45,785 nt of DNA, taken from assembly GCA_021432655.1 (NCBI GenBank), contig MU271549.1:1-45785 (forward strand). Reading direction: 5' to 3'. The translations under genes were made by a program, and so were the position numbers. Under the pieces are notes generated by a model. It was not told the DNA's origin. It saw only the letters and a program-made list of their open reading frames with translations, and did not search any database. The stretch is from Atractiella rhizophila (Eukaryota). Of the stretch, positions 10,425 to 42,245 are shown one piece after another. Each line of letters starts with the position of its first letter. Within the stretch, counting starts at the first letter, position 1.

Positions 10425-10595
10425 GAAGCATAATCACAACATTTGACATGAAACTGGCGTCGCATTTATTACAAAACCTCATTGGGTATCATCGCGCCGC
10501 AAATACACCTAGGTGCTTTGAGCCAGAGCGCTCATATCGGAAAATTTGGAACACACATCTATCACTGATCGAATAGTACATCATCTTCCCTTATC

Positions 10596-11105: not shown

Positions 11106-11600
11106 GACCAGGTACAATTCTGCAAGAATAATGAGCCTATGGTTCAAAGTAGGTGAATATGCAGGACAAGAGCGAAATGAAGTACGTAGAAGGGATGGGA
11201 TAGTGCTACAAGTAAATAGCTTCCATTTTCCAGGTCAGTGACCAATCGGCGCACTCCTTCCTTCGTAGCATTGAGAGAAGGAGAGAAGGATGTTTCGGTG
11301 AAATCGTAAATCAAAGAGTCGTTAAGTTTGGCCATCTTCATTGTGATATGTCCAGGATAAGACAGTGCAGCAGACATCGAACAGGTACGTGTGGATGTTG
11401 AGATTAAAAACGAGAAAGAGGAATATGTTTGAGAAATCTAAATGAACCCACTTGTGTTACTTCCTAAATACTAATATTGCGATCCTGTTCAGGCTAATGT
11501 AACACCGGCCTGATAGCTTTATTGTGAGTGTTAAGTTCCGAGGTGAACATTGGAGTCAGATAAGGTTCCAGCCATTCTGAGCATTGAGATCACCACCACC

Positions 11601-12176
11601 ATGTCTTCAGGTAGCGGTACAAATCAACCTCTGAGCCAGCCTCAAGACTATGGAGCCATCAAAAAGGCTTCGACTTCAAAGGCGCCAACCTCTACATCAA
11701 AAATCGAGCCAAAAGTCTTTCTAGCGAGTGAACGCACACTTTTCTCCTGGCTTCGGCTCTCCATTCTCATGGGATCCCTCTCATTGGCTTTGTTCAACGC
11801 TTCTGGGAAAGACAACATGATAGGACGATATTTTGGCTTTTCGTATTCTCTCATCTCGGTCGGAACCCTGTGTTACGGTTGGTGGGTTTTTGAGAAACGG
11901 AAAAGGAGGATTAGAGCGAAGGCAGCGGAGAAGGATGCGTTTGGTATGTTCCTTTTGTTGCGAAAGGTTTGGGTATGAGACACGGAACGACTTTAAACAT
12001 TCTTTTCTCGGAGCAGATGAACTCGTTGGACCAGTGGTCATTTGCGCGTTGCTTTTCTTCGCCGTATTGGCAAACTTCATCCTCCAATGTGAGCTTTTCG
12101 TTATCTTTAAAGGGCCATGTGAACATATTCACTGACTCTTGTGCCACCAGTTAAGCACCCGTTAGTAATCCCATGA
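11601..12176 (+). CDS. Vtc1-like (DUF202) vacuolar transporter chaperone membrane protein
   Basis: KIEPKVFLASERTLFSWL motif, three TM helices, D-ELVGPVVIC..FFAVLANF; two GT-AG introns; stop at 12174-12176. Confidence 0.85.
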
Positions 12177-14629: not shown

Positions 14630-16595
14630 TCAGCCAGAAATAAGTCCGCGTTCCACTAACGCTCTCATACACCCGTCTTTCAGGGTGTTGACTACGTCGT
14701 CAAATCCCCCGTTCCGAAACGCTAACAAGAGTACCACCGCAACCAACCAATTCCACCTCCCTCTCCTCCTTTTCCTCCCACTTCTCAACCGCCCAATAGC
14801 GCTGAATCCGCTCTGAACGACACCCGTCACTCTCCGATGGAGAGCAAGAAAGCGCAATGCTGCTAGATAAGTGAGCGTGCGGACAAGGTCTCTCTTCCGC
14901 CGCCGCCCTTCTTCAGATCGATATCCGAAAAAAGGATTGCTCTCATGATATCGTCCCAACTCCTTCCTCCACGTAATTCTTCCCGCTCCGCTGTTGCCAC
15001 TAATTCCCTCAAGCGAAGTGCCCATTGAGGTGAAGGTCTCCTTACGACGCCGTCGCTGTGGGGAGGATGCCCGAGATTGTGCACGGGACGAAATGCGGGT
15101 GAGTGAGGCGTAGGATGTGGACGTGTGGTCTGGATGGGGGAGGGAGATGAGCCGAGTGGCGGGTGAAGAGCGTGCGGATGGATAAGCAGAGGGGTAGGCG
15201 GAACGGTCTCGAACTGTGGTATCGGATGCCGATTCATCGTCTGCGTCATCGTCCTCCTCCGAAGAATTCTCAGAAGAGGGAGTAGATCCACCATTCGGCT
15301 CAGGATATGAAATTCGCCGTTCTGTCGACTTGGACATGGTGTTGGTGTTCGAGAGGGACGAGGTGAGACGGGTCATGTTTAGCCAGCCGAGACGGCCACG
15401 TTGTGGCTTCGGAGAAGGTGGAACGGATAAGGAACGAGCTGGAGATGAAGTTGTCGCCGCAGAATAACTTGACGCGCGGGAAAGTGTGTGGTCCTGAGGT
15501 TCCTGAGTTAGAGGTTCTCCACCAAAAAGAGGGGACCCATGTCGTAATAGTATCGAATTAGTAGTCGAGAAGGTGTAATCCAATTCACCACCGTGCCCTG
15601 CACTAACTGCGTTAGACTCGTCGCGAGTTGCGGTCGAGACGCACTTTTCAGCAAATTCGATGGCTCAAAGAATTCTAGAAGTTCGGGTGTTTTGGGAAAG
15701 AGGATTCTAGCAATCACAGACTGAGGCAACAGCTTCTTCATGACTTGCCAGACTCCAGAATACATCCAACCGTAGTTCAAGATAAAGACTGCGGTTAATC
15801 GTTAGATACCTTCGTGAGGGTTAAGAAGTTAGAGACACACTTGCACCAACCATGCCAGGAAAATGTGACCGTAGCAGATCCAAGAAGAAAGGAAGCAACT
15901 CAACTTCCTGGTGCTACCGTTGGAACCTTCGAGTACAAGAGCAAAGAGAGCGTACCATATTCGACATCCCAGCCCCATCCAAATCCACAATCAACACCAT
16001 TTGCAGAACCTTCATATCCTCTCCTGCGATTTCAGAGAGATACCTTCTCCCCAGCTCCCACTGGAATGCTATGAACTCTTTCAAACCCTCCAAGCTTCCC
16101 TCCGGGTATCTCTTCACCTGCTTCACGTTGATGACTGCGCACGGTCGACCCCATTTGTCCTGGAGCTCGGGATGGTAGAACATGAGCGGCGAGCGAACGT
16201 AGAAGTGGATATCATCCTCTTCTTCCTCTGTAGTCGGGAATGGCACGACAGTGTCAACACTTGACTTGATGCGCCATTGAAGCGTGAAACGCAGTGCGGA
16301 CAAGGCGGCTGTCAGGTCGAACTTGCATTTTCGCAAGTGTCGGAAAATAGCCCCTTCGTCACCAGTCTATCATTTCCCAGCTTGAAGCAGCAAACAAAGG
16401 CAGCACACCTGTGTCTTCAAGATAGCTCTTCCCCCTTTCCCATAACTCCTCCTCATCCTCTTCTGGACTGTTTAACTCTGCTATTAGTTCCGGTAGGAGC
16501 TTCTTGAGTGCTGTTTCTTGCAGTTCTGTTACGAGTGTTGAGTTTGAAGCATACTGTTCAACTATTTGCGCCTGATACGTAGCCAGGAAGCTCAT
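14630..16595 (-). CDS. CRAL-TRIO/Sec14 lipid-binding domain protein with Ser/Arg-rich C-terminal region
   Basis: FRHLRKCKFD..TLQWR, DKWGRP, VLIVDLDGAG, HFPGMVG, NYGWMYSGVWQVMKKLLPQSVIARILF and HGGELDY. Confidence 0.88.
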
Positions 16596-16940: not shown

Positions 16941-19900
16941 ATGCTCTGTTCTTGCGGTGTCGCTCTGCCTCCAGAACACGAATCTGAATCAATCTACTGC
17001 TCCTCCCACTGTGCCCTTGCGGATTCACTCAAAATGTTGACGGGCAACGGCGGCGGGAAGTTTCTTTCGAAGAAGAAGTCTCAAGGGATGTCACATTATA
17101 GGAGGGTCGTGATAGAGGAAGAGAAGAGGGTCATGGAAGAGAAGAGAGAAGAGAAGCAGGAGAGGAGGAAGAGGGCTTTAACAACGGTAGTGAGGAACGT
17201 GACAAATGCTACGAGGTTTTGGAAGGAGGATCTTGACGAAGCTATTGGAACGAAGCAAGAGAGGCGGAAAGCCGTAACTCCACAGACCAAGGAGGCTCCA
17301 AAGGCTTTCGATCACTCCCCTTTGCCGGAGCTTCGCCTCACACAGCTACCAGCTCTTCCCTCGATTCCCGTCTCTTCCGCTTTCGACGACTTTTCTGGCT
17401 CCGAAACCAATTCTCCCTTACTGCAGTCTCCCATGACGGATCAAGGCGTTCCTCCTTCACCGTGCGCTGAACCACTATCTAGCTCTTCAACCTCAGCGTC
17501 TATGACCTCAATTGATCCCTCTGACTTCTCAGCTTGCCCTTCACTCCCTTCGTTCACTCCTCAACCATCGTGGTTCTCTTCTTCCGCCGATGGCGGGGTC
17601 GAAGGAGGCGATTTGAGAAAAGGGTTGGGATTTTTGGGGTTGTCGAATAGCCGGACTTGCTCTTCCGTTGACTCTGTCGGACTGAAGAGGCACTCTAAAA
17701 TTGAAACTATGGCATCGTTTGGAGCGCGGGATGGTCTGTTCCACTTTCCTTTCACTACAAGGATGCTGAATAATGGATCCTTGACTAGTTTCTCAAGCGA
17801 ATGTACCGGCCCCAACTACTAACCTCATATCCTCTCTCTCCAACGTCAGTATATTCAGCTCTCCTTCCTCCATTAGACTTTTCGATTTTTCCAAGTTCCC
17901 GCAGCCCCCGGTGTCTCCTCACGTTGTTTCCTCTTCTGGTGAAACATCTAAACCTTTGAGCCCTTCGACACCATATGTACTGGATACTCCAACCCTCGAC
18001 TCCCTTGTCGAGTCGAAATCCGANNNNNNNNNNNNNNNNNNNNNNNNNNNNNNNNNNNNNNNNNNNNNNNNNNNNNNNNNNNNNNNNNNNNNNNNNNNNN
18101 NNNNNNNNNNNNNNNNNNNNNNNNNNNNNNNNNNNNNNNNNNNNNNNNNNNNNNNNNNNNNNNNNNNNNNNNNNNNNNNNNNNNNNNNNNNNNNNNNNNN
18201 NNNNNNNNNNNNNNNNNNNNNNNNNNNNNNNNNNNNNNNNNNNNNNNNNNNNNNNNNNNNNNNNNNNNNNNNNNNNNNNNNNNNNNNNNNNNNNNNNNNN
18301 NNNNNNNNNNNNNNNNNNNNNNNNNNNNNNNNNNNNNNNNNNNNNNNNNNNNNNNNNNNNNNNNNNNNNNNNNNNNNNNNNNNNNNNNNNNNNNNNNNNN
18401 NNNNNNNNNNNNNNNNNNNNNNNNNNNNNNNNNNNNNNNNNNNNNNNNNNNNNNNNNNNNNNNNNNNNNNNNNNNNNNNNNNNNNNNNNNNNNNNNNNNN
18501 NNNNNNNNNNNNNNNNNNNNNNNNNNNNNNNNNNNNNNNNNNNNNNNNNNNNNNNNNNNNNNNNNNNNNNNNNNNNNNNNNNNNNNNNNNNNNNNNNNNN
18601 NNNNNNNNNNNNNNNNNNNNNNNNNNNNNNNNNNNNNNNNNNNNNNNNNNNNNNNNNNNNNNNNNNNNNNNNNNNNNNNNNNNNNNNNNNNNNNNNNNNN
18701 NNNNNNNNNNNNNNNNNNNNNNNNNGGTAGGAGCTTCTTGAGTGCTGTTTCTTGCAGTTCTGTTACGAGTGTTGAGTTTGAAGCATACTGTTCAACTATT
18801 TGCGCCTGATACGTAGCCAGGAAGCTCATGGTTGTTTGTTTCGCTTTCGGCCCAAATCTTGCGCGAAATTCATGTGCACAACCCTCCCGAAGGGTACGTA
18901 CGTCACGTCCTCAAAGATAATGACAATAGGCCGAATGTTGGAATCTGCGGAGCATAATAGAGCAGACATGGTACAAGATAGCATGGCTTGGATAGACCGA
19001 AAAGAGGGCATAAATAGCATTTTTTCGTTGTTCAGAAATCGGTGAGCCTATATTTCTCTGATAAGGAATGGTGGGAAAGGGGTCAATTGCTTCCCGCTTT
19101 CGCTTCCCGCTTCTTTCGCCATCATCAGTACCACCACATTCGTTCCCCTCATACGTTCCTTTAATATTTGAAGCATTTTAATATCCATTATGCACTGTTC
19201 CTGCGGAGTCGCTCTGCCTGCAGAACACGAATCCGAATCCATCTACTGCTCCTCCCACTGTGCCCTTGCGGATTCACTCAAAATGTTGACGGGCAACGGC
19301 GGCGGGAAGTTTCTTTCGAAGAAGAAGTCTCAAGGGATGTCNNNNNNNNNNNNNNNNNNNNNNNNNNNNNNNNNNNNNNNNNNNNNNNNNNNNNNNNNNN
19401 NNNNNNNNNNNNNNNNNNNNNNNNNNNNNNNNNNNNNNNNNNNNNNNNNNNNNNNNNNNNNNNNNNNNNNNNNNNNNNNNNNNNNNNNNNNNNNNNNNNN
19501 NNNNNNNNNNNNNNNNNNNNNNNNNNNNNNNNNNNNNNNNNNNNNNNNNNNNNNNNNNNNNNNNNNNNNNNNNNNNNNNNNNNNNNNNNNNNNNNNNNNN
19601 NNNNNNNNNNNNNNNNNNNNNNNNNNNNNNNNNNNNNNNNNNNNNNNNNNNNNNNNNNNNNNNNNNNNNNNNNNNNNNNNNNNNNNNNNNNNNNNNNNNN
19701 NNNNNNNNNNNNNNNNNNNNNNNNNNNNNNNNNNNNNNNNNNNNNNNNNNNNNNNNNNNNNNNNNNNNNNNNNNNNNNNNNNNNNNNNNNNNNNNNNNNN
19801 NNNNNNNNNNNNNNNNNNNNNNNNNNNNNNNNNNNNNNNNNNNNNNNNNNNNNNNNNNNNNNNNNNNNNNNNNNNNNNNNNNNNNNNNNNNNNNNNNNNN

Positions 19901-20354
19901 NNNNNNNNNNNNNNNNNNNNNNNNNNNNNNNNNNNNNNNNNNNNNNNNNNNNNNNNNNNNNNNNNNNNNNNNNNNNNNNNNNNNNNNNNNNNNNNNNNNN
20001 NNNNNNNNNNNNNNNNNNNNNNNNNNNNNNNNNNNNNNNNNNNNNNNNNNNNNNNNNNNNNCTAAACCTTTGAGCCCTTCGACACCATATGTACTGGATA
20101 CTCCAACCCTCGACTCCCTTGTCGAGTCGAAATCCGACCTTTCAACTCAGCTAAGTGAGATCCTGAATGGTTTAGGAGTTGAGGAAGAAGGAGAGAAGGC
20201 GTTTAGGTTCATCACTGATGATCTTGCTTTGTCTCCTACCCTGACGGCGCAGAGGGTGGCGGTAAAACCCCTTAGATTGGATGGGAGGAGGATGGCTTTG
20301 ACCAATCAGAATTTAGCAGAAATGAGGAGAGTGACAGCAATTGGTCGACTATGA
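16941..20354 (+). CDS. Hypothetical protein with N-terminal Ecl1-like Cys motif; split by assembly gaps (likely true locus 16941-18023 + 20138-20354)
   Basis: CSCG...IYCSSHCALAD motif followed by a coiled-coil and an S/P-rich region. 17948-18023 is repeated exactly at 20062-20137 across the gaps. Splicing near 17730-17880 unresolved. Confidence 0.6.
18024..18725. other. Assembly gap (N run)
   Basis: Run of n characters. Confidence 1.
18726..19341 (+). repeat. Diverged second copy of 16492-17092 (probable alternate haplotype)
   Basis: Collinear copy of the CRAL-TRIO 5' end, the shared promoter and the Ecl1-like 5' end, with SNPs and small indels; flanked by N gaps. Confidence 0.9.
19342..20061. 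other. Assembly gap (N run)
   Basis: Run of n characters. Confidence 1.
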
Positions 20355-27602: not shown

Positions 27603-29056
27603 GATAGTTCGATGAGCAATCAAAGCGGATTTGTACAATTATCGAAAACACAGTGGAATCATGCAAACTCATTCACTCCTCTCCTTGCCTCCCGTTTAAC
27701 TCTTTTTGTGCGCTGTCCCAAAACAAGGCTGAAAATACTGTGAAGAACCCACATGGTTCTTTCAACAGAGCAGTAGGCACCTTTGTTCAACCCCGAAGAC
27801 GTTTTTTGTAAGGGCAGGCAACGAAAACCATCAGGCTTGCATTCTTTACGCATTCCCGGACCCGATTCATCAGGTCGCCTTGTTTTGTGGATGTTTTTCA
27901 ACAAGCAGATGAATGTTTCTCATGAGGCGAATGCATGCTCTTTCTCGCCAGACACGACATTCTTTGGGAAGGTAGCTTAAATTTCAAACCACTGAATTCC
28001 TCCCGGTTCCATTGTACTAGTTCCATAGTGCACACATTACTGATAATAAACATTACCATCATATACATATTACTATTATCGAATTTGACAGGTCTCGTCG
28101 TGTCCCAACTCTTGATCGATCCGCCGTCTGCCTTATCAAGTAGGGAGAGCAAAATCGGGGCTGTGAGCAACTTACAAGTTATTACACTGAAGTAAAGGCA
28201 AGGAGATCAATTGGAAGGGACCGTAGTGAGTAGGAGAGAAGTCAGTAAAGGAATTGGGGAGATCGCAGAAATCGTTATTCACAAAGGCGGATCCGTTGTG
28301 CAACTATCGAGCATGCTGAGATGGTCAACGTCGCAATGGTTGGTCAAGTATTGAGGGTGGGTATCCGACCAAACCAAACAAGAGGGTTATGCTTCCCTTT
28401 CTCGTTATCGTTCCCCTCAGCCATCATACTGTCCTCCTTTGAGTCTGCCCACACGGAGACTCTTTTAACTCGGATTGTAAGAGAGCGGACTAGAAACCTT
28501 GACTGCCGGCGCGGCATGAGGAGGAAGCCTACTTGCACGTAGCGTTTGATTGGCGGCGGTGGATGGTCTGGAGTTTGTTTCCGAGGCTCTGTTCAGAGGA
28601 AAGACTTCCTTCATTCTAGAATGGAAGGGAAGAGAAGGGGTGAGGACAAAACAATACAAGTTTGTCACTTACCTCCAGGGTGACAATCTGGTCTGTATAA
28701 AGTATTCAGCCTCTTAAACACAAATCATATCCACATCACAAGAATAGAAGAGAGACGGTCCTAGTAGCTTCCACCTTCCACATGAATAGTTTGTTTCCCA
28801 TCTTTGTGAGTTCAGCATTACTAGAAAATCGACAGGCAGTTAGGAGCTACAACTTCAGTATTGTCAAGTCCATCATCTATCCTATCGCATGTATCTTTTT
28901 GGCTTTGATTTGGAGGTGGTTCATTGTGGTTAACGTGCAAAGGGATAGGAGAGAGAATTAGTTGCTCCGTCACCTTCAAAAAGCGAATGTTTCGGCTGTA
29001 CCGAAGGGTTTACTCTATACTCCGGAGTGACTAGGAACTGAGTTGGGTTGAATGAT

Positions 29057-29096
29057 AAAGGGGGGCCAGAGATGTAATTTTAGGGTATAAAGCCCC
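29057..29096 (+). repeat. Left terminal inverted repeat
   Basis: aaa-g6-ccagagatgtaattttagggtataaagcccc vs reverse complement of the right end, caa-g7-ccagaggtgtaatttcaaggtagaaacccc. Confidence 0.88.
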
Positions 29097-32000
29097 CTAA
29101 CCGCATGCTGCCAAGAGTGGCCACTCTTAGGTTCGACCTGGATTTTCACAGAAATTGTTTGCCAAATATTTTCAGTGTCTTGCGGTTATACCACAGGTTC
29201 CTGAAAAATTATACATCACGCGAAAGTGACCTGAAAAGAGAACTGAGAGCAGGAAATGAAGTAAACATAAGAGCAAAATGAGGAAGGTTTGAATGTTAAT
29301 TGTGCAAAGAAGAATAAAAGCTGAACTAACTTGATATCCAAGTTGTAGATGTTACGTTGGATAAAGCTGAGAGCAGCATAGCAGCTTGGAAGCTGTTCAC
29401 AGAGTCATATCAGTTTGTGCTCCTAGAGCTAAATACAACTTACACTTCATCCAGAACAAATGGTGGAGCTGGAACAGAAACATATTGATTGGTATTTGTG
29501 GTGACTGGTCGCCCTGGCAGCCACTTGAGCTTGACTCTGTGATGAAAAGTACGCTGAGTCTCTACCAATCTCAGAAGCATATCTGTGTCCATTTCTTCAA
29601 TCCACTTTGCTTCAGTGCTTCCACGGTCTGAATCAATGAACTGCTCTAATTGCCCAACATGTTCCTGATGATAATAATTTGCAAGTGAAAAAGAAGGAAT
29701 GATCAGCCCACATTGATCACCTTGATAAGTGGAGGGGAAAGTTAGGGCATGGAGACTTTGTAACACTGATGATAGAGTAGCAGGTTGGGAAGCAATTAAA
29801 GACCGAACATTCTATAAGGACCTTCTCTATCTGAGACCCTTTCTTCATAAGTTGAATGGAGCAGGTTCCATATCTTTCACAAAATGGACAGGTGTAGTCA
29901 CGATCCTTGAGGTTTCTTGATAGTTTAGGATCAGAGGGTGGAACTGGGAGAGGAAAGAGAAGTCCATCATCTGAGGGGTGAATTCCAAATGAAGGAAGGA
30001 GATTGAGGCAAGGTGGAAACCAACATGCAAAGGCATCTTCTTCGTTGTGTACACAGTTTGACAGCACTCCACCATGCACTTTGAGGTATATGCAATCGGC
30101 AGTCCTAGATCTGCCAGGCTTTGAACAATACTTTGGCTTTGGAAATGGATCATGCCTATGATTGAGACAGTCAGGTTGCCACCACCAGAACATGTTCAGA
30201 CCACTACCGATCGTATCTCAAGAAAGTATCATGCTGCACGTCACTCTTACCGTCTCATGCCTCTTAATCTCCCAGAAATCCAGCTAAATCGTAATCCTGA
30301 CATACTTAATGCTGGAGACCTTGTGAGCCTCCTCATTCACTGCCAGGAGGATGTCGCATTGGCTGTTGCGGTATTCCAGCAGGTTGACAGGGACCGCAAT
30401 AAGAATAAGGATCCCCTAGCTACCATTGCCATGTCTGCTCTAGGAAACAGCACTGCCAACACCTGTCTCCTGGTCCGGCCAATTCTGCTTCGTCAGCTAC
30501 TCTCCTCAGACCACGGTCAAACATGGGCATGCAATGGCAGTGTCTATCTCAAGCTCCTCAACGCTCGTACAACCTTTCTCTGTGACCTCCAGTCAGCTTT
30601 TACCTCTACGTCCTAACCGATTTGAAGTGGAAGAAGAACCATGGTGGGGGTTCAACCATGAGATTCTGGAGAAAACTGAGTTGAAACTTTCGAGCTTGAT
30701 GAGGAGTCGCCACATGGATCTCACAGCAATGGAAAGTTTGTGTGACATCAAAGGCTTCCCTTATCAAGATTCTGGAGGTGTGTTCAATGACCACTTACTG
30801 GGTTGAGAATGAGACGAATAAGATGTGCCTTGTGCACGACACCTTGTCCATCCGCTCTACACAAGTAAAGGTCATCTTGCGAGACCCTCAACTTCCAGAC
30901 AACCCAGTTTCACTGAGCTTGTCTCCAAATCCAACTTCTCCATTGTGTCTTATTTCGGAGTCAGTCACGTCTGCTTTAGTTCCTCCTAATCCTACTGCCA
31001 ATACCAACTGGGATGTCTGGATCTCTAACAGCTCATCTTGTTCTTCTTCAGCTTATCCAATTGACATGTGTTGGCCCTTCATCAAAAGGAGAAGGAGAAG
31101 TGTAAGTGTTGATGGGTACATAGCTGATGGCTGATGGAGTGGTTCAAAAAGGCTGATGGTCTTCATTAAGAAGTGTTTGGACAGACGGAGGACACTGAGA
31201 GGGGAGAGTTGGCGGCAAGAGTGTTGATTGGTACGACTCGAGCGCATTTGCAGTCTCATCCTCTTCATTGTCCAGACCAGTACCCATGAACTGCTCTTGC
31301 TCTCTTCCTTTTGGCCAAAAGAGTGATACCGACTCTGTCAAGAGTGCAACATGGTCGAATAGGATACCAGTCCTTCGATTCCTTCAGCTCCCTTTCTGTT
31401 TTCCGCAATGCAGCCTCCCAAACCTGATCTAAATCCACCTTACCAACCTCAACACAACCCATAACAGAGCTGGGATTCAGATGATCTTGACCATGCTCCG
31501 TTGTAGGATCGAGACGTTTGTCTGTAGGTCTCCATTCAGGATGAAGCACGTAGTCATGCTGAACTCACACGCCGTGACAGCATGTTGCTGAAACTGGTGG
31601 AAGTCAAAATTGCGGTCACTTCCTGTCAGTGTACGGATGATTCCGAAGGCTTGTTTGAGGAGATCAGTTCCAAGCTGGAAAAGAAAGAATCGAAATTGGG
31701 GGTTGGTAGCCTTGATTCGAGTGACAATAAGAAAGCAGCCTTAACAGTTGTCACAAAGTCATGGTAAAGTTGCCTTGGCAAGAAGTTCCCACTATTCACC
31801 CGATAGCACACCAACATTTTGAGAGCTGCCGTGGCCAGATTCTCCAATTGGGTGGAGAGATCCAGGTTCATTGAGATGAAAGGGATAAACCCGTCATGGA
31901 TGTTGGAGCCAAGGAGAGACAGTGCTCTCCATTCGTGAAAGATCGTCAGGCTATCATCGTATGGTTTTGGGATGTTAGCCAGCTGGGAAAAGTAGGTGAG

Positions 32001-33770
32001 GAGACAGGTTGTGCACGGAACATTCATCTTGTCCTTCTCGTAATATAGGATGTCCACTCGTAGTCATCAACGTTGGGATGTGCATTCTTGAGGTGTTTGT
32101 GTGTGACTTCAGGTGTGGTGGTGACATGTGCAACCGCTATTCCGCTTCTACGTTGGAGTGCAGTCGCAAAATGCTTCCAGAGATGCTTGACATCAAAGAC
32201 AGGAAGGATGCCAGTCTTGGAAGTAAAGCAGTAGTCGAAAAGAGGCAGATCATTCCAGATGACCTTAAAGAGTTGGGGAAAGACCTGATGAATCTCCCTC
32301 TTCCTGAACCAGAACTGAAACTCCCTCCGTCATTTGCCATCTCCGTCACTGCAGTATGCTAGGAGATGACTGAAGCCACCAAAGCATTGCACAATAAATT
32401 TGAGTGTGCCTTTCTCTTTGGTGGCAATGGTTCGGATACCATCCTCGAAACTGCCGCCTTTCATACATTATGGACTAATAGACAGGGGTCTCATATGATA
32501 TTCTGTATATTTATGTCAGCATAGGACCCAGAATGCGTTACGAAAGGAGAGCACACCTTTGTCACCAAATCGCCCCATGCCTCCCACACTCACAAAGCTT
32601 GCAATGTGTGCTCCTCCAGCGATATTGTCTAACCCCTGCCGAAGCTTCACTCCAATTTCAAAGACCTTTTCTTCGCCGTCAATCACCAAGTCGAGGTCCC
32701 CGACATGCTCTCGATATAGACCTTCACATCGCTTTATGAAAGGATTATAGCAGCAATGTTTCTCCAGAGCTGTCTCATCCTTTGCAAGGAAGAAGAACAC
32801 ATGATTCGCCGATGCTTCGTCAGAATATGGGAAGATACCTAGGTTGTGCAATATCTCGTGTGCTGTGGGATATCCATATGAATCATGTAGCTTGTTATGG
32901 CTAACAAAATGATGGATGGTGTGGAGGGAGGGAAGACCATTGGCTCTGTGGAATGTATGAACTAGACGCGCTCCACCAATACGGAGGAGCATGGCACCTA
33001 GCTGGAAGTGTTTCGTGTAAGTTCGGAGTCCGAGAGAACCGTCAATGGCTTTGAAGACAATCCAAAGAAGCTCCTGCGCGCTAACCTTTTGACAGCAATG
33101 GTATTGATAGATAATGTCACCGATGCGGGGTAGGTCAGAGGTGCCAATGCTGCAAGGAGGTGGCATTCTTCAAAGTGGTTGATGCGAAGGCGCTTGTTGA
33201 GCTGTTGGATAAAAGTTAATGCAAGATGACTATAGAAATAGATAGTTGTACCTTATTCGTCAATGTTGTATGGATGGCAGAGTATTGTCACGAAAGGATG
33301 GAATCCTGAAGTGGCATGAGGTAAGCTTCGTTCAGGTCAAAAGAGGGGTCAACATTTTTGGCTCTCCATTGAATCTGCAGGTAAAGCTTCGACTCCTTGA
33401 TACTGAGGCAAGCCTTACAGATGGCCTGCTCTGCTCCTACCATCTTCTTCCAGCACTTGCATGACTCCAGCGTGATGTGTAACGCTTCCAATTGAGCTAT
33501 CCAAGGAATATCTTCATTCTCCCCAGGCACCATGGATAAGACTCATTCGGACTTGCTCCACCAACCCCGAAATACTTCCAGCCATCACAGTCTTGCACAT
33601 GAAAGGTGAATGCTTCTTCCTCATCATATTCCCCAGCATCGGAATATGTTGCGGCATCGTCCACCCTTTTGTCGTGCAAAGCAAGGAGGCCATGATCTTC
33701 TGAGCAACGCGGCACTCACCTCAGGCTGAAGGTATGAGACCCCTTCCTCCAGCCCTTCTATGTGCAGATG

Positions 33771-34260
33771 TGTTAGGGCTGACACTATGTGCGGTCGCTG
33801 ATAGGCGATGCGTCTGTAGTGGAGGTAAACCTAAGAGAATCGTATAGCATGAGAAGACTAACCTGTAGTGGAGGTAAACCTAAGAGAATACTCTGAGGTC
33901 ACCACCACTACATCTCAATGTATATATACATATGCCAAGGCACTGCCATAAACTGTAACATAAGTTTCTTGAAACATGTAAGATAGCTAGATCAGGAAAG
34001 CAATAAAGGGAATACTCGGAAATAAGATATACTGAGCAGTACAAGTGAGAAAAGATAACAAGGCAATAATGGCGACGGTGCAGACCGGCGAAATGTATAA
34101 GGTTTGCTGAGCGGCGATTCGAGTGAGATGGGAGAAGGCGGCGGTCAGCGCGAACGTGCGCAAAGCGGCGACGGGTAGGCACTTGATCCTACGATGTACT
34201 AAAGTAGGTCACGTGACTCTGAATGGTGCATTTCGGTAATGCGTAGGGGCAAGCCTGACA
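33771..34260 (-). mobile_element. Solo LTR A (Gypsy family)
   Basis: TGTTAGGG...CCTGACA termini with 5-bp TSD AGATG (33766-33770 / 34261-34265). Confidence 0.93.
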
Positions 34261-34539
34261 AGATGATATCGTAAACGGGCAATCTCATCCAACATCCTTC
34301 CCTCTCTTGCTTCTCGATTACGCTTCACTGTCCACATGTGTAATTCTTGCTTCTCAGTCTCCTTCTCTAACTCCTCAATCTGGTCTTTCAAATGACACTT
34401 CGATGCCTTGCCACAAGCACGTCCTTTGAGGTGGGTCTTATTGAGGTACCGTTGAGATGGCAATTTCACACCACGGTCCGGGCATTGGAAACTCTATTTC
34501 GAGAGACATTAGACTCAATAGATCATATTTAGTGAAAAC

Positions 34540-34998
34540 TGTCAGGCTTGCCCCTACACATTACCGAAATGCACCATCTGAAGTCTCGTGACCCACTTTT
34601 GCCGCCTCATGGGATCACGTGCCTATCCATCGCCGCTTTGCTCATGCCTGCGCTGTCCGCTGCTTTCCCCCTCCGCTCAGCAAACCTTATACATTTCGCC
34701 GATCTGCACCGACTCCATTTTTGCCTTACTATCCTTTCTCACTAGTACTACTCGGTATATCTTATTTCCGAGTATTCCCTTTATTGCTTTCCTGATCTAG
34801 CTATCTTATGTGTTTCAAGAAACATACGTTACAGTTTATGTATATATACATCGAGATGTAGTGGTGGTGACCTTAGAGTATTCTCTTAGGTTTACCTCTA
34901 CTACAGGTTAGTCTTCTCATGCCATACTATTCTCTTAGGTTTACCTCCACTATAGATGCATCGCCCATCGGCGACCGCACATAGTGTCAGCCCTAACA
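34540..34998 (+). mobile_element. Solo LTR B, opposite orientation to A
   Basis: TGTCAGG...CCCTAACA termini with 5-bp TSD AAAAC (34535-34539 / 34999-35003); reverse-complement homolog of solo LTR A. Confidence 0.93.
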
Positions 34999-35487
34999 AA
35001 AACACACACCTGGGTGGTGGGAACATCTCTTCTTGCAGCTGAATGCTCAGAGGTTGACTGCTGCGGTCCAGTAATCGATATCGATTCGGGAGGGGTCAAA
35101 GATGGCACCAGAGACAGAGAAGTTGCGTTGGGATTGAGTGAAATCGAGGTTAATGTATGAGGATCTGGTAAGCGGCAGACAAGTAGATTGTCTAACCGCA
35201 TCTGTGGAGGAGGTTGAAGGAAGCTGTGAAAGCTATGTTCAGGGATGCTTTCCACATTTTGACTTCCCTGGTGAACAAGAAAAGCAACCCTGCGCCGTTT
35301 GGACGGAGAAGCACTGGGGGAGGCAATGAGAAGGACCGATGAGCCTGGTTGCACAGAAGTTGTCGATGAGAGTGGTGTTTCCTGTGGGTCCAAAGGATTG
35401 GAATTTGAGGGGATGGGTGATTGAGGTACGAGCACAGGTGGGAGTGTTGCAGCAGAGGTGCCTGAGAACGCATGCGCAACAACAGTC

Positions 35488-35950
35488 TGTTAGGGCTGAC
35501 ACTATGTGTGGTCGCCGATAGGCAATACGTCTGTAGTGGAGATAAACTTAAGGGCATGATATGACATTAAGACTAACCTGTAGTGGAGACAAACCTAAGG
35601 GCATGATATGACATGAAGACTAACCTGTAGTGGAGATAAACCTAAGAGAATACTCTAAGGTCACCTCTACTACTCTCTGATCTATATATACAAGCGGAAT
35701 AACACTGCCACAAAGCGTAGGGGAGAGCAGATGAAACATGTAAGAGAACTAAAAGGGGGAAGTGACAGTGGGATTACACGGAGTTAATAAGAGGAGGATA
35801 GGCACAATTGGGCTAAGTGGTGATGTAGGTGCAAATGGGTGACGGGAGACGCAGTGTCGAACCGGCACCGATTCGCAGGGAACACAAATGGGCGATAGGA
35901 GACACAATCCGGCAAACGGGCGCCGGTTTGCGTAAGATGCGAACCTGACA
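35488..35950 (-). repeat. 3' LTR of the Gypsy element, containing a ~47-bp tandem subrepeat
   Basis: TG..CA termini, adjacent PPT-like GGGGGATGT (35951-35959, minus strand), TATA-like tatatata ~35684, and ctgtagtggagataaac.. units at 35531, 35578 and 35624. Confidence 0.92.
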
Positions 35951-36189
35951 ACATCCCCCAGTTTCTGTGGTGCTTGCAGTAAGCAGAAACTTCTGCTTCA
36001 TGACGTTTGCCAATTTTGCGAAAGGTGCCTGAAGTATCAGCCGCCGCTCGGACAGAGATGAAATTGTTGGAGCAAAGAGACACTGTGTACCTCGCAATTT
36101 GAGGAATTTTTCAAAGTTGACCAGGTGTTGTTTTGGTGTAATAAGTGTCCATTCTGCGAAAACGGGCTGGACAACTCACCAACAAACCG

Positions 36190-36533
36190 GTCACCGATCT
36201 GTCCGTTGAGGAACAGACCGGCGCCTCGCCTAGACCTATGTTCAACAATGTGACTAGGGATTCACCCAGTGAGGCATGTAGAGGAGTAGGACCTCTTAAA
36301 GTGAGGGGGAGGGGACCTCGCGATTGAGGGCAATTTTCGTAAATGCGACATTGGTGATGGTGCAAGAACACAATGAGCATTTGTCTTTGACGGGCGACGA
36401 ATGGACTCACCAATGACCAAGTCACCGACTTGCCCGTTGAGGAGCAAGTCGGCGCCTTGCCTTAACCTAAGTATCAAAGACTAGGATTTCACCCGGCAAG
36501 GTATATAGGGGTGTTGGACCCTTTAAAGTGAGG
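36190..36533 (+). repeat. Diverged ~115-bp direct repeat pair in the Gypsy 3' region
   Basis: gtcaccga..ccgttgagga..cggcgcct..taaagtgagg at ~36190-36306 and ~36421-36533. Confidence 0.7.
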
Positions 36534-36589
36534 AAGACCCTTCAGCACGTTTTCGTCATTTGGGCGATTTTTTGCAGAGTTCGGTATGG

Positions 36590-39136
36590 AATCGGGACGA
36601 ACTGCAAGAGGGTGTGCAGTGTGATAGTCTTTTATAGCATCCTGCGAATTTTCTAGATCTGCGATGTTGATCTACTCGTCCTCAGATGGTGAATACCCTT
36701 TGTATCGAACGCAATATTTAAAAACTCTATTTCAGGTACCGAACCATTTTCCATCGACAATTTTTTCCACTTCCCATTCTTCAATTCCATTCACCAATTC
36801 TGGAGGTGGTTTGGGCAACTGGACTCTGCCCGGGATGTCGTCTTCGTTGACTTTTCGTATTAGGCCCACATGGAACACTGGATGTATCTTCCATGAGGAT
36901 GGCAACTCGAGTTTAAGGTTGAGGGGACCCAAAACTTGCAAAATGTGAAAAGGGCCATGCCATTTGTCGTCCAACTTTTTGACAGGTCTCATCGATTTAA
37001 TGTTTTTCGCGCTCAACCAGACGAAATCGCCGACACCATATTTGGGTGCCAATGTACGTTTTCTGTCATAATGTTTCGCTATGAGATCTGCTGCTTGCTC
37101 GAGTGCCACTTGTGCTTCCCAGTCGGCGATTTGCATCTTTTCAACGCATTGCGCCGCTGCGGGAGCGTCCTCGTCGGAGATGGAGTCAAAGGCCATGTGG
37201 GGATGTTGACCGCAATCGAGCGAAAATGGAGTTACACCCGTCGCCGAACTGACGCGATTGTTGAGCGCAAATTCTGCGTTGGGAAGTCCTTCCACCCAAT
37301 TATCTTGAAGGTGATTGCAAAAAATGTGCAAATATTGCTCAACTTCTTGGTTCATATGTTCAGTCCGGCCATCACTTTGTGGATGATAGGCTGTCGGTGG
37401 TGAGCCTTTGATACCCAATAGGCGAAAAAGTGCAGATGTGAATTTGGACACGAATTCTTTGCCTCAATCGAAAATTGCGACATCAAAAAGTCCATGTAAC
37501 TTCCATACATGATCGCGAAAAAGTCTTGCAAGGCCTTCTGCATCCATCGTCGAATGGGTGGGGATGAGATGGGTGCGTTTTGAGAGTCTGTCAACTATGA
37601 CGAAAATTGTGTCGAACCCCCCAGATTCTGGGAGTGGTCCAACCAAGTCCATGCTGACAATTTGCCAGCAACGTGTGGGAGTGTCATTTGGTTGCAAAAA
37701 CCCGACGGGTGGGGAAGGAAAGTTTTTCGTTCTGTGGCAAGTGTGACAGGCGCTGACATAGCGGCGAACGTAATGTGCCAAACCTGGCCACCAGTAGTAC
37801 CTTTTTACAAGAGCCGTCGTCGATTTTACGCCTGGATGACCGGCGATTTGCGAATCGTGCAGGTCTTGCAAAATCGAGCGGCGAATTTCGCCGTCGCGGG
37901 GAATGTAGAGTTTTCCGCGGAAATAGACAGCGCCATCGACTTCTTGCTACTCCCGTCGGCGAATTGCATTGACTGGTTCGTCTAGGATCTCTCTCAAGGC
38001 TTTGACTACTTGTTCTTCCCGTTCAGGTACCTTTTTCATGCATTCCAGTATACCCAACTCCGACATTTGTCTTGTAAACACAACCGCGCTCCCAGTCGCG
38101 TTGATCATGATACGATCCGTGTTGAAAAAACGTTCTGGGAGTAATACTACATCAAAGTTGTCGCAAGTCGCCGGTTTGTGATCCGGTCGCCGACTGAGCG
38201 CATCTGGTTTTGCGGAGTTCCGCCCAGGACGGTGTAAAAGAGTAAAGTTGAAGGATACAAGTTCAGTGATCCAGCGTGCCTGTCGGCGATTCAACTTCTG
38301 CGGCATTCTGAAATACTCGAGGTTTTTGTGATCGGTCAGGATCAGAAATGGCTCATCAGTACCTTGTAGAAGGTGTCTCCATTCTTGCAGTCCACGCATT
38401 ATCGCGAGCATTTCTTTGTCGTAGGTGTCGTAGTTCTTCTGGGTTGCGTCGAGCGATTTTGACACGAAACCTAGAGGATGAAACTTCCCATCTGGCTTCA
38501 TTTGCGACAAAACGGCGCCTGTCGCGAAATTTGACGCGTCGACTTCGAGCAAAAACCGTCCTATTTGTTCGGGATGCGCCAAAACGGGCGCCGAAGTCAT
38601 GAGTTGTTTTAAAGCGGCGAACGAACGTTGTTGATCTACCCCCCCAGACCCATGAAACCTCCATTTTCGTCAGTTCATATAAAGGTCGTGCAATGTGACT
38701 GAATCTGTCGCAAAAGCGGCGATAGAAATTAGCGAAACCGAGGAACATTTGGACTTCCTTCATGTTTTTTGGTTCCGGCCAATCCATCACTCCTGCAACT
38801 TTCACCGGATCTGGTTCGATCCCTCTGCTGGAAATGATCGAGCCTAGATACTCCACCTCTTCTTGACACCAAATGCATTTCTGCAAATTTACGTAAAGCC
38901 CATTTTCGCACAAAATTTGACAAACTTGTCGAACACGTTCCTAATGTTCTTCTTCAGTCTCTGTCGCAGTGAAGATGTTGTCGATGTATATGAAGATGAA
39001 CGCAGGTCTTGTTCGATTTTTTGAACTGCTTTTCGGTTGTGAGGTGTAGAGTTTGGAACATCCTTTCTAAGTGATGGATGCGTTCTTCGCTCGTCGGCAA
39101 TTCGCGCGTTTCCATATCTCCCCAAACCTCCGACAT
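36590..39136 (-). pseudogene. Gypsy gag stub fused to partial pol (RT C-half, RNase H, integrase, chromodomain)
   Basis: FIYIDN (YxDD), VEYLG, FLGFANFYRRF, LEVDASNFATGAVL, TDHKNL, HDSQIAGHPG..CHTC, VSMDLV, HPQSDG, GPF, EWEVEKIVD; stops and frameshifts. Confidence 0.93.
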
Positions 39137-39164
39137 TTTTTAAGTTTGGTTTTGAAAATGAGAG

Positions 39165-39174
39165 AGAGTATTCT
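39165..39174 (-). promoter_or_regulatory. Self-priming primer-binding site (Tf1-type)
   Basis: AGAATACTCT, 2 nt after the 5' LTR end, is the exact complement of AGAGTATTCT in the LTR (35647-35656 minus strand), which lies downstream of the TATA. Confidence 0.65.
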
Positions 39175-39176
39175 TC

Positions 39177-39682
39177 TGTTAGGGTGTCAGGTTTGCATCT
39201 TACGCAAACCGGCGCCCGTTTGCCGGATTGCGTCTCCTATCACCCATTTGTGTTCCCTGCGAATCGGTGCCGGTTCGACACTGCGTCTCCGTCACCCATT
39301 TGCACCTACATCACCACTTAGCCCAATTGTGCCTATCCTCCTCTTATTAACTCCGTGTAATCCCACTGTCACTTCCCCCTTTTAGTTCTCTTACATGTTT
39401 CATCTGCTCTCCCCTACGCTTTGTGGCAGTGTTATTCCGCTTGTATATATAGATCAGAGAGTAGTAGAGGTGACCTTAGAGTATTCTCTTAGGTTTATCT
39501 CCACTACAGGTTAGTCTTCATGTCATATCATGCCCTTAGGTTTGTCTCCACTACAGACGCATCGCCCATCGGCGACCGTACATAGTGTGGCGACGGGCGC
39601 CGATTCGTAGGGAACGCAAATGGGCGATAGGAGACACAATCCGGCGAACGGGCGCCGATGTGCGTAAGATGCAAACCTGACA
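39177..39682. repeat. Rearranged 5' LTR: 8-bp LTR end + inverted LTR copy (39185-39588) + ~93-bp LTR remnant
   Basis: 39185-39588 is the reverse complement of ~35499-35950 (one subrepeat fewer); 39590-39682 is direct to ~35860-35950. Confidence 0.88.
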
Positions 39683-40267
39683 CAGTCTTCTTGTGAGGCC
39701 GGCGCACATTATTCGATGAGCTCGTGCTAGCACTAGAGCTACGACACATTCAGGTCAAAGGTATAGAAGGCACGGCAAACGTCCCAATGTTCCAGACAGG
39801 TTCCTATTACCAAAACTCTTTCACAATTCAATTAACATTCAAGATGATAGCAATGCACCTGTTCTGGTACCATTACTCTTGGGAAGTGATAGCTCCTTCG
39901 CTTCCTCCTCAAGTCTGATTAACTTTCAGCTCAACTTATATACCCCACCGTTCCTTTCGGCCTGTGTACTTCGCCCTGAAGCAAGATTTCGAATAGTGCA
40001 TCCTGATCAGTTGTGATCAGTGCCAAGGAAGGAGCAGAAGAGGAAGTTGCAAATTGGGCGAAGTTGGAAGCGCTGCATGTGGATTCGGGGGTAGTGTTCG
40101 AGGGGCCGGGGAGACATAGAATCGAGCTGTGCGTTGGATGAGGTTGAGGACCTGTTTGAGGACGTCGATGTTGTTCATTTGAAACAAGGATATTTCATTG
40201 AAATATTCACAGACCTGACACGCGGCGCAGAAAACTGACAGTCCCAAACGGGCAAAGGCTTGGGCCA

Positions 40268-40307
40268 GGGGTTTCTACCTTGAAATTACACCTCTGGCCC
40301 CCCCTTG
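40268..40307 (-). repeat. Right terminal inverted repeat
   Basis: Reverse complement matches 29057-29096; ends in TG and is followed by the TSD GAATGAT. Confidence 0.88.
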
Positions 40308-40454
40308 GAATGATGAGGTTCTTCCCCAGTTATCATGTAAGTCGACATGACAGATGCAATGGGAAGACAGGTCGAAGGTGACTTCAGAGAAGCTGCACCG
40401 TAATTATGTACAATCGCATTATCACTTCAATTCAGGAAATGAACCACTGTCATC

Positions 40455-42245
40455 TCAATCATCATCCCCTCCCTCCTCGAAGGTGAAACGGAAATCGTGT
40501 GCTACAAGCGAAAAATTGTTCCTTGTTGGCATCTTTGCCTCTGTCCCTGCTTCGATTGTGGCCCGCAAATCAGTGCACTCATCTTGAAGAGTCATCAAGT
40601 TCACACTTCGAACTATTTCGTCATGATAGAATGATCGTATGGTGATGTGGATGCCATATTTATTGGTGGTTCGTTCTGCACGCCGTCTCCTCAGAAATCG
40701 AAAAACTTCAACGATCGGAACATGACAGTAATATATTGAAAGCTTAGTCACCAAAGGACAGCTGAAGGATTGGAGAAATTTAGGGGTAAGGATGGCCGAG
40801 AGTTCGTGCAAGCCGTCCAGATTCAATACGCGAAGAATGTCACTGGAGTTGAAGAGCTCATCCAAAGGATTTTCAAAGACGATACCACGCGAACGCCGCA
40901 GCGGACGTAAGGAGAACCTAAAGGTTGTGAGCCACCTTCCGTGATTTTGTAATAATTCCTCAACGTCCTTGGAGTGCAGATCGACAATCCAGTTGTCGTA
41001 TAAAGACAAATGGCCAAGAGGGCGTGGCTTTGGATGAATTTCTTCACTGCCATTGGGTCCATCGATAAAGATCGGCGCCCAACATTTCACGCTCAGCATA
41101 AATGGTAGCATTTGATGGATAATCTCCCTCGAAATAAATGATCCACTGATTGATACGTCCGTAAGGCTTCCTCGAGGTAAAGGCTGAAGGGAAGTGTGCG
41201 GGTTTGGCAACAGGACAAGATCCCAGTTGAAGAGGAACAAGGACTCTAAGCTCCTCAGTGGGTGTTTCAAGAGCTGGCAAAGGTCCGCAGTGGTCCATCG
41301 GTGGCAAGTAGGGTCTTCCGTTTCGCCCACAGACAAGATCAGAAGTAATCGAATGCACATCAAGGCCCCCACCTGTGCGAAAAACCTGTTTCTAAGATCG
41401 GTCGACGGTAATGGGAGCTGGATAAACATTGACTGCAGACGAAAGGTTTCTTTGAGGATAGACACCACAGTATTCCAAGTGGACTCAACGCCACGAGTTC
41501 CCACGTTGAACCTGAATAGGACCAGCTGTCTAATCCACGGCACAGTGATTGACCCCCACGTCTCGAACATGGGAATGAGATTCATGTGATGGTGAGAGTC
41601 GTGGTTCCCGAACTCTCCTGTAAGTTCGCAAATTTTGGTGATACCAACCGAGTTAAATCGCTGGCAAACAAGCCGAAAATCCTGGATTCTTCGAAACTTG
41701 ACCGTTAGTCTCGGATCATCCAACATTTCAGCCAAAAAACAGCTGAGAAGTTCGATAGGCAAATAGAGAAATGGATTCACCACCCAAGGATGAACGAACG
41801 CTAAGTGAAGATTGAAGCTTGTTATAGGGATCTCGGGGAAACCTGTCCATTCTAGAATAGTTGTTTTATCTTTGTCGTCACAGATCAAATCAATCCCGTT
41901 CGTAAATGACAATTCCCCCAAATCCAATAGAAGCTCTTTGTCCAACTGTCTGTGCCCAATCCCAAGACCAATCGTAGACCTGTTTCCTTCAAAAAAGAGA
42001 AACAAACGAATCTCCAGAACAGAGTCTTCTAGTGAGACATCGACGACTGTTTGGTAGTGCGGTCGCCGCTCTGAAAACGAAACGGCCAACTTCTTGGAAA
42101 GGTGAACCTTCTTGCTTCTGGTAAGAAGCTGATTCTTGATGACTGTGCTCGCCACTGCGAAAGCCCTTAGACAAAATGGACTCGCAAAAACGGGCTCATT
42201 CGCCTCCTTGTGTAGTGGTATGAGGGAGATCAGCATGACGAACAC
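40455..42245 (-). CDS. F-box-like / LRR-like hypothetical protein (start uncertain)
   Basis: 596-codon uninterrupted ORF; YLPIELLSCFL...FRLVCQRF F-box-like motif followed by LxxLxL units (LESLFL, LTDVSI, LGHLSL, LRVLNL, VTKLSI). Confidence 0.6.
   Translation of the reverse strand: MFVMLISLIPLHKEANEPVFASPFCLRAFAVASTVIKNQLLTRSKKVHLSKKLAVSFSERRPHYQTVVDVSLEDSVLEIRLFLFFEGNRSTIGLGIGHRQLDKELLLDLGELSFTNGIDLICDDKDKTTILEWTGFPEIPITSFNLHLAFVHPWVVNPFLYLPIELLSCFLAEMLDDPRLTVKFRRIQDFRLVCQRFNSVGITKICELTGEFGNHDSHHHMNLIPMFETWGSITVPWIRQLVLFRFNVGTRGVESTWNTVVSILKETFRLQSMFIQLPLPSTDLRNRFFAQVGALMCIRLLLILSVGETEDPTCHRWTTADLCQLLKHPLRSLESLFLFNWDLVLLPNPHTSLQPLPRGSLTDVSISGSFISREIIHQMLPFMLSVKCWAPIFIDGPNGSEEIHPKPRPLGHLSLYDNWIVDLHSKDVEELLQNHGRWLTTFRFSLRPLRRSRGIVFENPLDELFNSSDILRVLNLDGLHELSAILTPKFLQSFSCPLVTKLSIYYCHVPIVEVFRFLRRRRAERTTNKYGIHITIRSFYHDEIVRSVNLMTLQDECTDLRATIEAGTEAKMPTRNNFSLVAHDFRFTFEEGGDDD

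Follow-up and report, generated by a model that had tools for sequence, protein, structure and literature searches.

The stretch of DNA analysed here (the window) is a whole 45,785-bp scaffold, MU271549.1, of the basidiomycete Atractiella rhizophila (Pucciniomycotina). At 29057-40307 it contains an element of 11,251 bp that is bounded by terminal inverted repeats (TIRs), flanked by a target-site duplication (TSD), and occupied by the remains of a transposase gene and a block of nested retrotransposon sequence. We regard this interval as very probably the product of a single insertion, old and now dead, by a cut-and-paste DNA transposon belonging to a fungal branch of the P superfamily. The limits of the element are set by the following features:

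29050-29056, no strand: left copy of the TSD, GAATGAT, read directly, with 0 mismatches against 40308-40314
29057-29095, plus strand: left TIR, beginning AAAGGGGGGCCAGAG, at the 3' end relative to the transposase gene
40268-40307, minus strand: right TIR, beginning CAAGGGGGGGCCAGAGG on the complement, at the 5' end relative to the transposase gene
40308-40314, no strand: right copy of the TSD, GAATGAT, read directly, with 0 mismatches over 7 bp

Both junctions were read directly from the sequence. The left one runs ...GGGTT GAATGAT|AAAGGGGGGCCAGAGATGTAATTTTAGGG, with AAAGGGGGGCCAGAGATGTAATTT directly after the duplication copy at 29050-29056, and the right one runs ...AAATTACACCTCTGGCCCCCCCTTG up to 40307, followed by GAATGAT GAGG. 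The right end of the element is accordingly CAAGGGGGGG, which opens with 5'-CAAG on the complement, and the left end is AAAGGGGGG, in which an A replaces the C found at the first base in the family. A repeat finder places the arms at 29057-29095 and 40268-40306 (39 nt, 85% complementary), with a run of six G in the left arm and seven in the right. When three mismatches are allowed, a 21-nt core, GGGGGGCCAGAGRTGTAATTT, occurs at two sites in the 45,785-bp window, both of them element ends, and none of 100 shuffles contained two or more matches to it. Anchored at 29057 and 40307, the flanks are identical over 7 bp and out of register at 5, 6, 8, 9 and 10 bp, and single-strand folding of the element ends did not differ from that of shuffles. 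The original prediction, made from the letters of the window, had described imperfect TIRs of about 40 bp with a G6/G7 run, 11.25 kb apart, an exact flanking GAATGAT, and a right end reading 5'-CAAG with A for C on the left; the ends and the duplication are confirmed as real in each of these respects. No further copy of the element was found within the window at either the DNA or the protein level.

The family to which the encoded protein belongs was delimited by an exhaustive HMMER search with a 217-amino-acid (aa) open reading frame (ORF) against 1.84 billion representatives (E<=0.001). This returned 114 proteins, each standing for a cluster at 50% identity, two of which are close (99% and 90% identity, from the same species by NCBI names) and the others 23-43% identical. 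Five homologues whose records were consulted bear the label 'hypothetical protein' and come from Atractiella, Ephemerocybe/Tulosesus and Pleurotus, as had been anticipated, at least for these relatives. When all 114 homologues were compared to the window by tblastn, similarity was confined to 31331-33533 on the minus strand, where we recognise the following:

31331-33533, minus strand: transposase pseudogene core, comprising a helix-turn-helix (HTH)-like region, a split RNase H fold and an alpha-helical insertion domain (tblastn, alignment to the paralogue P0002, exon map)
32777-32779, minus strand: first catalytic Asp codon, retained (D of DETALEK; D102 in P0002; alignment A1 column D559, invariant; within model strand E95-105)
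32345-32347, minus strand: second catalytic Asp codon, retained (SDGDG; D228 in P0002; column D678, conserved in at least 90% of A1 and in all of A3; just past strand E220-227)
32183-32194, minus strand: D(2)H motif DVKH, retained (D278 and H281 in P0002; columns D726 and H729, invariant in 30/30; after strand E274-277)
31654-31656, minus strand: catalytic Glu site (TDLLEQ, E458, in P0002), occupied by Lys in the window (TDLLKQ; column E904, invariant in A3; helix H455-466, past the insertion domain)

The closest paralogue, P0002, is a protein of 549 aa from another scaffold, of 85 kb, and is 90% identical over the 217-aa query, with tblastn segments 80-92% identical to the window copy; a further member, P0004, is encoded on a 4.5-kb contig. 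Residue alignment to P0002 reveals two in-frame stops in the window copy, in SISP*CMK and DGDGK*RRE, and frameshifts near 32052, 31740 and 31564; the stop in DGDGK*RRE lies four codons downstream of the second catalytic Asp codon. A further stretch of 54 nt, at about 32490-32543, also carries a stop, is missing from the P0002 protein, and is read as an intron. A six-frame translation of the window contains the protein motif DETALEKHCCYNPFIKRCEGLYREH a single time, at 32779-32705 on the minus strand; this is the DE..LE..Y...GLxREH motif to which the original prediction had drawn attention. Given two in-frame stops, three frameshifts and the replacement of the catalytic Glu by Lys, the transposase gene of this copy is dead, such that the locus supplies ends and no working enzyme. 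At best the copy could be moved in trans, and this is unlikely because of its mutated first terminal base and its doubled length.

Fold and catalytic signature of the transposase family

None of 22 ORFs in the window matches the Pfam P-family models (PF21787/8/9, PF12017, PF12596), and the ORFs of the element yield no Pfam match at E<=0.01, nor, for the transposase pieces, at E<=10. Among 33 family members scanned at E<=0.001 there is a single, sub-threshold match to TNP-like_RNaseH_N, and when the limit is relaxed to E<=1, PF21787 (TNP-like_RNaseH_N) is matched in 8 of 30 members and PF21789 (TNP-like_RNaseH_C) in 2 of 30, all below the gathering score. Neither the hAT dimerisation domain nor any other hAT Pfam family was detected in the 30 members at E<=1 or in the 33 at E<=0.001.

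P0002 was modelled with AlphaFold using 112 aligned relatives (pLDDT 93.3, pTM 0.91). The top Foldseek match of this model is the Drosophila P element transposase (6p5a_A, E 2.2e-11, TM score 0.67 by target), followed by RAG1 and Transib at E of about 1e-4. A comparison against 48,161 chains with VIA-align also places 6p5a_A first (Z 24.6, root-mean-square deviation 5.4, 398/442 residues aligned), well ahead of RAG1 (Z 9.2), ISCth4 (9.1), Tn5 (8.2), Transib (7.2) and Hermes (7.2). Furthermore, all ten of the best named neighbours in the ESM Atlas, whether by features or by structure, are TNP-like, THAP9 or Tnp_P_element clusters, carrying TNP-like_RNaseH_N, TNP-like_GBD, TNP-like_RNaseH_C and Tnp_P_element, and no hAT cluster is among the neighbours listed.

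Conservation was assessed in alignment A1, which holds 30 of the 114 homologues selected by length, and in A3, which holds 11 closer sequences; a further alignment, A2, excluded P0026 and P0096, whose 21 and 8 matched stretches resembled repeat matches. Columns D559, D726, H729 and K732 are invariant in 30/30 sequences of A1, where D678 reaches at least 90%, and both D678 and E904 (11/11) are invariant in A3. In the P0002 model beta1 bears the first of the catalytic residues, the next two positions come directly behind beta4 and beta5, and the last occupies the helix beyond the insertion domain, itself all-helical and 175 residues long. The corresponding signature of P transposase is D230/D303/D339(2)H/E531 with a GTP-binding insertion domain (PMC7776569, PMC8230255), and PMC8230255 describes for the P superfamily a [C/D](2)H motif placed where beta5 gives way to the insertion domain. 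The family thus possesses a DDE triad on an RNase H fold (with Lys at the Glu position in the window copy itself), the D(2)H motif after beta5, and a P-like architecture in which an HTH region and a split RNase H fold are accompanied by a helical insertion in the GBD position. The proposal that these proteins are transposases of a P-like family is therefore supported by the fold search, the Atlas neighbours, the weak PF21787 matches and the placement of D, D, D(2)H and E.

Full-length relatives encode transposases of 1,300-1,700 aa. Their N-termini carry a finger of the form C-P-x-C-x17-H-x5-C that is invariant in the eight examined, three of which show weak matches to ZNF512_C2HC.

Complete relatives and the length of the duplication

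The 21-nt core pattern of the window TIRs has no match in metagenome contigs. However, a scan for related loci based on the 11-sequence alignment gave 312 pattern matches in soil and root metagenomes, of which 107 encode relatives and 80 loci were kept. Over some 550 residues, these proteins share 25-29% identity with the one from Atractiella, with E down to 1e-50. A blast screen of upstream and downstream flanks, covering the 52 of the 80 loci that have long gene matches, yielded 13 candidate end pairs, 12 of which begin CAAGGGG at both ends, and a motif screen extended to the full set of 80 picked up 37 CAAGGGG...CCCCTTG pairings, separated by 4.5-9 kb and spread over 22 loci. About 23 loci retain enough flank on both sides to be informative. 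In 13 of the 22 loci with such pairings (L008, L009, L012, L013, L014, L015, L019, L035, L043, L044, L056, L064 and L071) the flanks show perfect identity over 8 bp, with 13 different 8-mers duplicated, and perfect flank identity at 5, 6, 7, 9 or 10 bp occurs in none of the 37 pairings.

The elements bounded by these duplications are 5.86-6.59 kb long in 12 cases and 7.88 kb in one, which roughly bears out the earlier estimate of a native length near 6 kb (5.8-6.6 kb for complete relatives, with one at 7.9 kb). Open frames on one strand fill the related elements from about 300 to about 5,800, and consequently the transposase spans nearly the whole element. Gene orientation relative to the ends is the same in the window copy and the relatives, and by coordinate arithmetic the Glu position lies about 2.6 kb from the 3' end in the window copy versus about 2.9 kb in a relative. 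TIRs of the family are 14-39 nt long and start CAAGGGGG; the right end of the window element carries this conserved terminus, and the left end is one substitution away from it. Direct evidence of recent movement comes from L008 and L013, which are 98.4% identical over 5,993 bp and lie at different sites with different duplications.

Two of these loci have a layered structure. The L014 element (5,993 bp, duplication GTGAGGGG) sits inside a second CAAGGGG-type end pair, at 4049-4356 and 10350-10554, with 19 of 20 positions agreeing, and the outer pair would form a shell of about 513 bp, perhaps a non-autonomous family derivative into which an autonomous copy had inserted. At L043, a 75-nt inverted repeat (9218-9292 and 15806-15880, 98.7% identical) lies about 270-350 bp outside the element ends, so that this element may be inserted within another TIR element.

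Because 8-bp duplications characterise the 13 related loci, the 7 bp seen at the window locus are not the signature of the family. The family norm is 8 bp, and the shorter duplication here is either a variant or a result of decay. The simplest reading is of a true 7-bp duplication together with a single C-to-A change at the first base of the element, whereas an original 8-bp duplication would need two events, namely a 1-bp deletion at one junction and a substitution. It had been claimed that this locus would provide both the terminal and the TSD signature of its family. This stands for the termini, since CAAGGGG is common to the relatives, and fails for the TSD. Both lengths lie within the 7-8 bp expected of the P superfamily: the duplication is 8 bp in the P element (PMC7776569) and 7 bp, occasionally 8, in Galileo (PMC4168063).

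Probable placement in the P superfamily and its alternatives

Among known systems, the closest is the Drosophila P element (6P5A) with THAP9, a cut-and-paste DDE system whose HTH region, split RNase H fold and large helical insertion superpose on those of the fungal family, whose D, D, D(2)H and E occupy the same structural places, and which shares with it an 8-bp duplication and termini beginning CA. The two nevertheless differ in several respects. Sequence identity is only about 13%, a THAP domain in P corresponds to a C2HC finger in the fungal family, the P element resides in an animal rather than a fungus, and its 31-nt TIRs begin CATGATG, as opposed to 14-39 nt beginning CAAGGGGG. P transposase is also considerably shorter, at 751 aa versus 1,300-1,700 aa. 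GTP use and a 17-nt staggered donor cut are features of the P element, with which the fungal family may be compared by the position and helicity of its modelled insertion domain. Galileo and 1360 likewise combine a DDE triad with D(2)H and show, in one family, 7-bp duplications with an occasional 8, yet Galileo is an animal element with a THAP domain and very long, foldback-like TIRs.

P-type elements have been recorded from fungi before. A 2011 report on rust fungi announced P-superfamily elements as 'previously unknown in any Dikarya', and autonomous and non-autonomous P elements of Melampsora with 8-bp duplications were deposited in Repbase (PMC3164196). The Repbase entries (P-1_PSt, P-1_MLP, P-2_MLP, P-N1_MLP, P-N2_MLP) resemble the present family in coming from Pucciniomycotina and in the 8-bp duplications of its relatives, and differ from this copy with its 7 bp. 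We infer from agreement in duplication length and taxon that our family may be the same as these fungal P elements, or 'DNA/P-Fungi'. A RepeatMasker class 'P-Fungi' is listed for Pleurotus ostreatus with 10 copies totalling 46,557 bp (PMC12387193), and Pleurotus also holds a member of our family, P0013; the class appears, too, in a repeat table of a Phakopsora transcriptome. The kind of element is therefore already known, as a fungal P branch reported in the same subphylum (the rusts) with 8-bp duplications. Literature searches, with Repbase/Dfam and supplementary files outside their scope, found no published description of this basidiomycete protein family or of its CAAGGGGG ends.

Several observations weigh against assignment to the P superfamily, or limit what can be concluded about this particular copy. 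No Pfam P-family model reaches its gathering score (the best match scores 22.8 versus 24.6 bits), and a profile search of PDB sequences with A1 gave no match at E<=10. The THAP domain is absent from the eight N-termini scanned, a C2HC finger standing in its place, though one review describes THAP as restricted to animals (PMC7776569), and hence it may not define the superfamily outside them. The duplication is 7 bp here as opposed to 8 bp in all 13 informative relatives, which are themselves only 25-29% identical to the lineage of the window, and seven further loci (L001, L004, L028, L034, L038, L057 and L059) have good end pairs without a duplication. An 8-bp duplication and a CAAGG terminus also fit the hAT consensus. 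Finally, protein evidence alone cannot separate P from Kolobok, as no Kolobok structure or profile was compared.

The alternative that survives best, although we consider it improbable, is that the family forms a separate lineage at superfamily level, a sister of P/Kolobok that shares only an ancestor with P, in which case the P-element name would be wrong. Such a lineage would account for a similarity to P models that lies under every curated threshold, for the C2HC finger in the absence of THAP, for CAAGGGGG termini unlike CATG, and for a spacing of 126 aa between the two Asp residues against 73 in P. However, the fold match extends over 398 of 442 P transposase residues, insertion domain included, with a Z score 15 units above those of other superfamilies, the Atlas neighbours all belong to P/THAP9 families, the duplication has the same length as that of P, and Repbase already assigns fungal elements with 8-bp duplications to P.

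Less probable again, by about half, is a divergent hAT-superfamily transposon. hAT elements likewise have short TIRs, [C/D](2)H, an RNase H fold that contains an insertion domain, and duplications of 8 bp, as in the 13 relatives, and CAAGG fits their YARNG end consensus. The 7 bp of the window would moreover find a counterpart in the hAT7 group, whose 7-bp duplications are known from rust fungi (PMC12730594), that is, from within Pucciniomycotina. Yet the match to the Hermes fold attains a Z of only 7.2, compared to 24.6 for P transposase, and neither the hAT domains nor the hAT clusters sought among family members and listed Atlas neighbours were found.

A Kolobok-superfamily transposon is a still more remote prospect. 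Kolobok elements are regarded as close to P, lack a Pfam model, and are reported as low-copy but ubiquitous in fungi (PMC5751038), and no structure from them could compete in the fold search. Against this stand the duplications, GAATGAT here and thirteen 8-mers elsewhere, none of which is TTAA. It is TTAA that Kolobok elements duplicate. That the inverted repeat and GAATGAT pair are chance matches around unrelated repeats, for which one might cite the single copy in the window and the lack of an observed empty site, is excluded by the shuffles and by the CAAGGGG ends of distant relatives, in which the same protein is encoded with its orientation preserved and at comparable distances.

We accordingly retain the P superfamily as the likely home of the element. 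The analysis shows the ends, duplication and gene decay at this locus, a P-like fold for a closely related paralogue, and, among the relatives, common termini and 8-bp duplications; the mechanism we propose around them is as follows. In the active family, a transposase of 1,300-1,700 aa, whose RNase H fold is divided by a large helical insertion, would bind short TIRs beginning 5'-CAAGGGGG by means of its N-terminal C2HC finger and HTH-like region. The RNase H domain would then excise the element and insert it at a target whose strands are cut with a stagger of 8 bases (7 here), and repair would turn this stagger into a duplication of the corresponding length. By analogy with the P element, GTP may be bound by the insertion domain. 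Following insertion, this copy lost its catalytic Glu, gained stops and frameshifts, changed its first terminal base from C to A, and received a nested block of long terminal repeat (LTR) retrotransposon sequence.

On a broader scale, we tentatively suggest, as a possibility rather than an expectation, that these 'hypothetical proteins' represent a large and old basidiomycete branch of P, missed by domain-based surveys because no Pfam model reaches it. Under this proposal, THAP would have given way to a C2HC finger, a GBD-like insertion would have been kept, such that the branch may need GTP, CAAGGGGG ends would be conserved across lineages only 25-29% identical, and elements would still be moving in some Agaricomycetes. 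A survey of fungal genomes in 2017 provides the opposing picture, and reportedly covered some 1,700 genomes. According to this survey, P entries in Repbase came from 'only Pucciniales & Allomyces' (17 entries), and a search with Pfam P domains recovered 11 elements, regarded as rare and probably horizontally acquired (PMC5751038). If our proposal is correct, P elements would instead be widespread and vertically persistent in Dikarya, and our results suggest that surveys keyed to Pfam P domains undercount fungal P-type transposons. The value of the present analysis is that a family invisible to Pfam has been named, its ends defined, and the family found to be widespread and recently mobile. It offers a name and a likely mechanism for widespread basidiomycete 'hypothetical proteins' (114 clusters at 50% identity, 107 metagenome stretches), and an end signature, CAAGGGGG plus an 8-bp duplication, by which whole elements and non-autonomous derivatives could be annotated. 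The near-identical and apparently recent metagenome copies are candidates for an active fungal P-type transposase, an enzyme that could show whether GTP dependence is ancestral to the superfamily.

Nested sequence, sequencing runs and neighbouring genes

The remainder of the element's interior comprises two further features:

about 33771-39683, no strand: nested block of high-copy LTR-retrotransposon sequence, about 5.9 kb, with approximate boundaries (Pfam domains, repeats, contig depth)
39684-40267, minus strand: 5' subterminal region of the transposon (compared with the family N-terminal region and scanned for C2HC fingers)

Without the nested block the element would measure about 5.3 kb, and the block has nearly doubled it to 11.25 kb. 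LTR-like units occur within it in several orientations, including an inverted pair of about 490 bp each that face each other at 33771-34260 and 34540-34998 (83% identical), the first of which begins TGTTAGGG at 33771. Contigs at single-copy depth skip each of these two units exactly, with joints 33765>34261 and 34534>34999 in both sequencing runs described below; the pattern resembles two independent solo-LTR insertions into a sequence of which uninterrupted copies also exist. Fragments of a Gypsy-type pol gene (RNase H, integrase zinc finger and core, Tf2-type SH3) lie at 36732-38669 on the minus strand. They are bracketed by 373-bp repeats at 35578-35950 and 39185-39556 that are 98.9% identical and inverted, whereas LTRs should be direct; possible causes are rearrangement, inversion between the LTRs and an artefact of assembly. 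Neither similarity to the N- and C-terminal regions of the family nor a C2HC finger motif was found in the window at 39684-40307 and 29057-31330.

The window is present in two DNA runs (X1 and X2) of one sample, no RNA run being listed, and these are probably from the source sample. Summed contig depth in X1 is 4,400-142,000 in the nested block versus 140 in the flanks, and about 1.8-2.8 times the flanks over the element body, although depth is not to be taken as a copy number. Two contigs of similar length cover 31976-32287, one with 0 differences and the other with 14 differences and 4 gaps, which points to a second, diverged copy in the sequenced sample. No empty-site joint from about 29056 to about 40308 was present among 15 of 75 joints, a result of little weight in what is probably the source sample. 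The right-flank contig starts at 40280 in both runs, 28 nt inside the element, and the left-flank contig reaches 193 nt inside; the former pattern could arise if another copy had its final 30 or so bases in common with this right end.

Elsewhere in the scaffold, two runs of N (702 bases at 18024-18725 and 720 bases at 19342-20061) account for an apparent GC content of 0.14-0.16 and for six-frame 'ORFs' in that region. A 596-aa open frame at 40458-42245 on the minus strand ends about 150 bp from the right end of the transposon and has no Pfam match; the Atlas places it near clusters of F-box proteins (score 0.96, 143-149 shared features), which serves as a lead only. The left part of the scaffold (1542-11975) contains host genes for a UDP-glycosyltransferase, an aspartyl protease, a sugar transporter and a DUF202 protein. 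An ORF at 10599-11234 on the minus strand has a strong match to AID/APOBEC-type deaminases (PF18785 Inv-AAD, E 1.3e-29; dCMP_cyt_deam_1, E 2.1e-16), which merits mention in that the transposon copies of this genome differ mostly by transitions.

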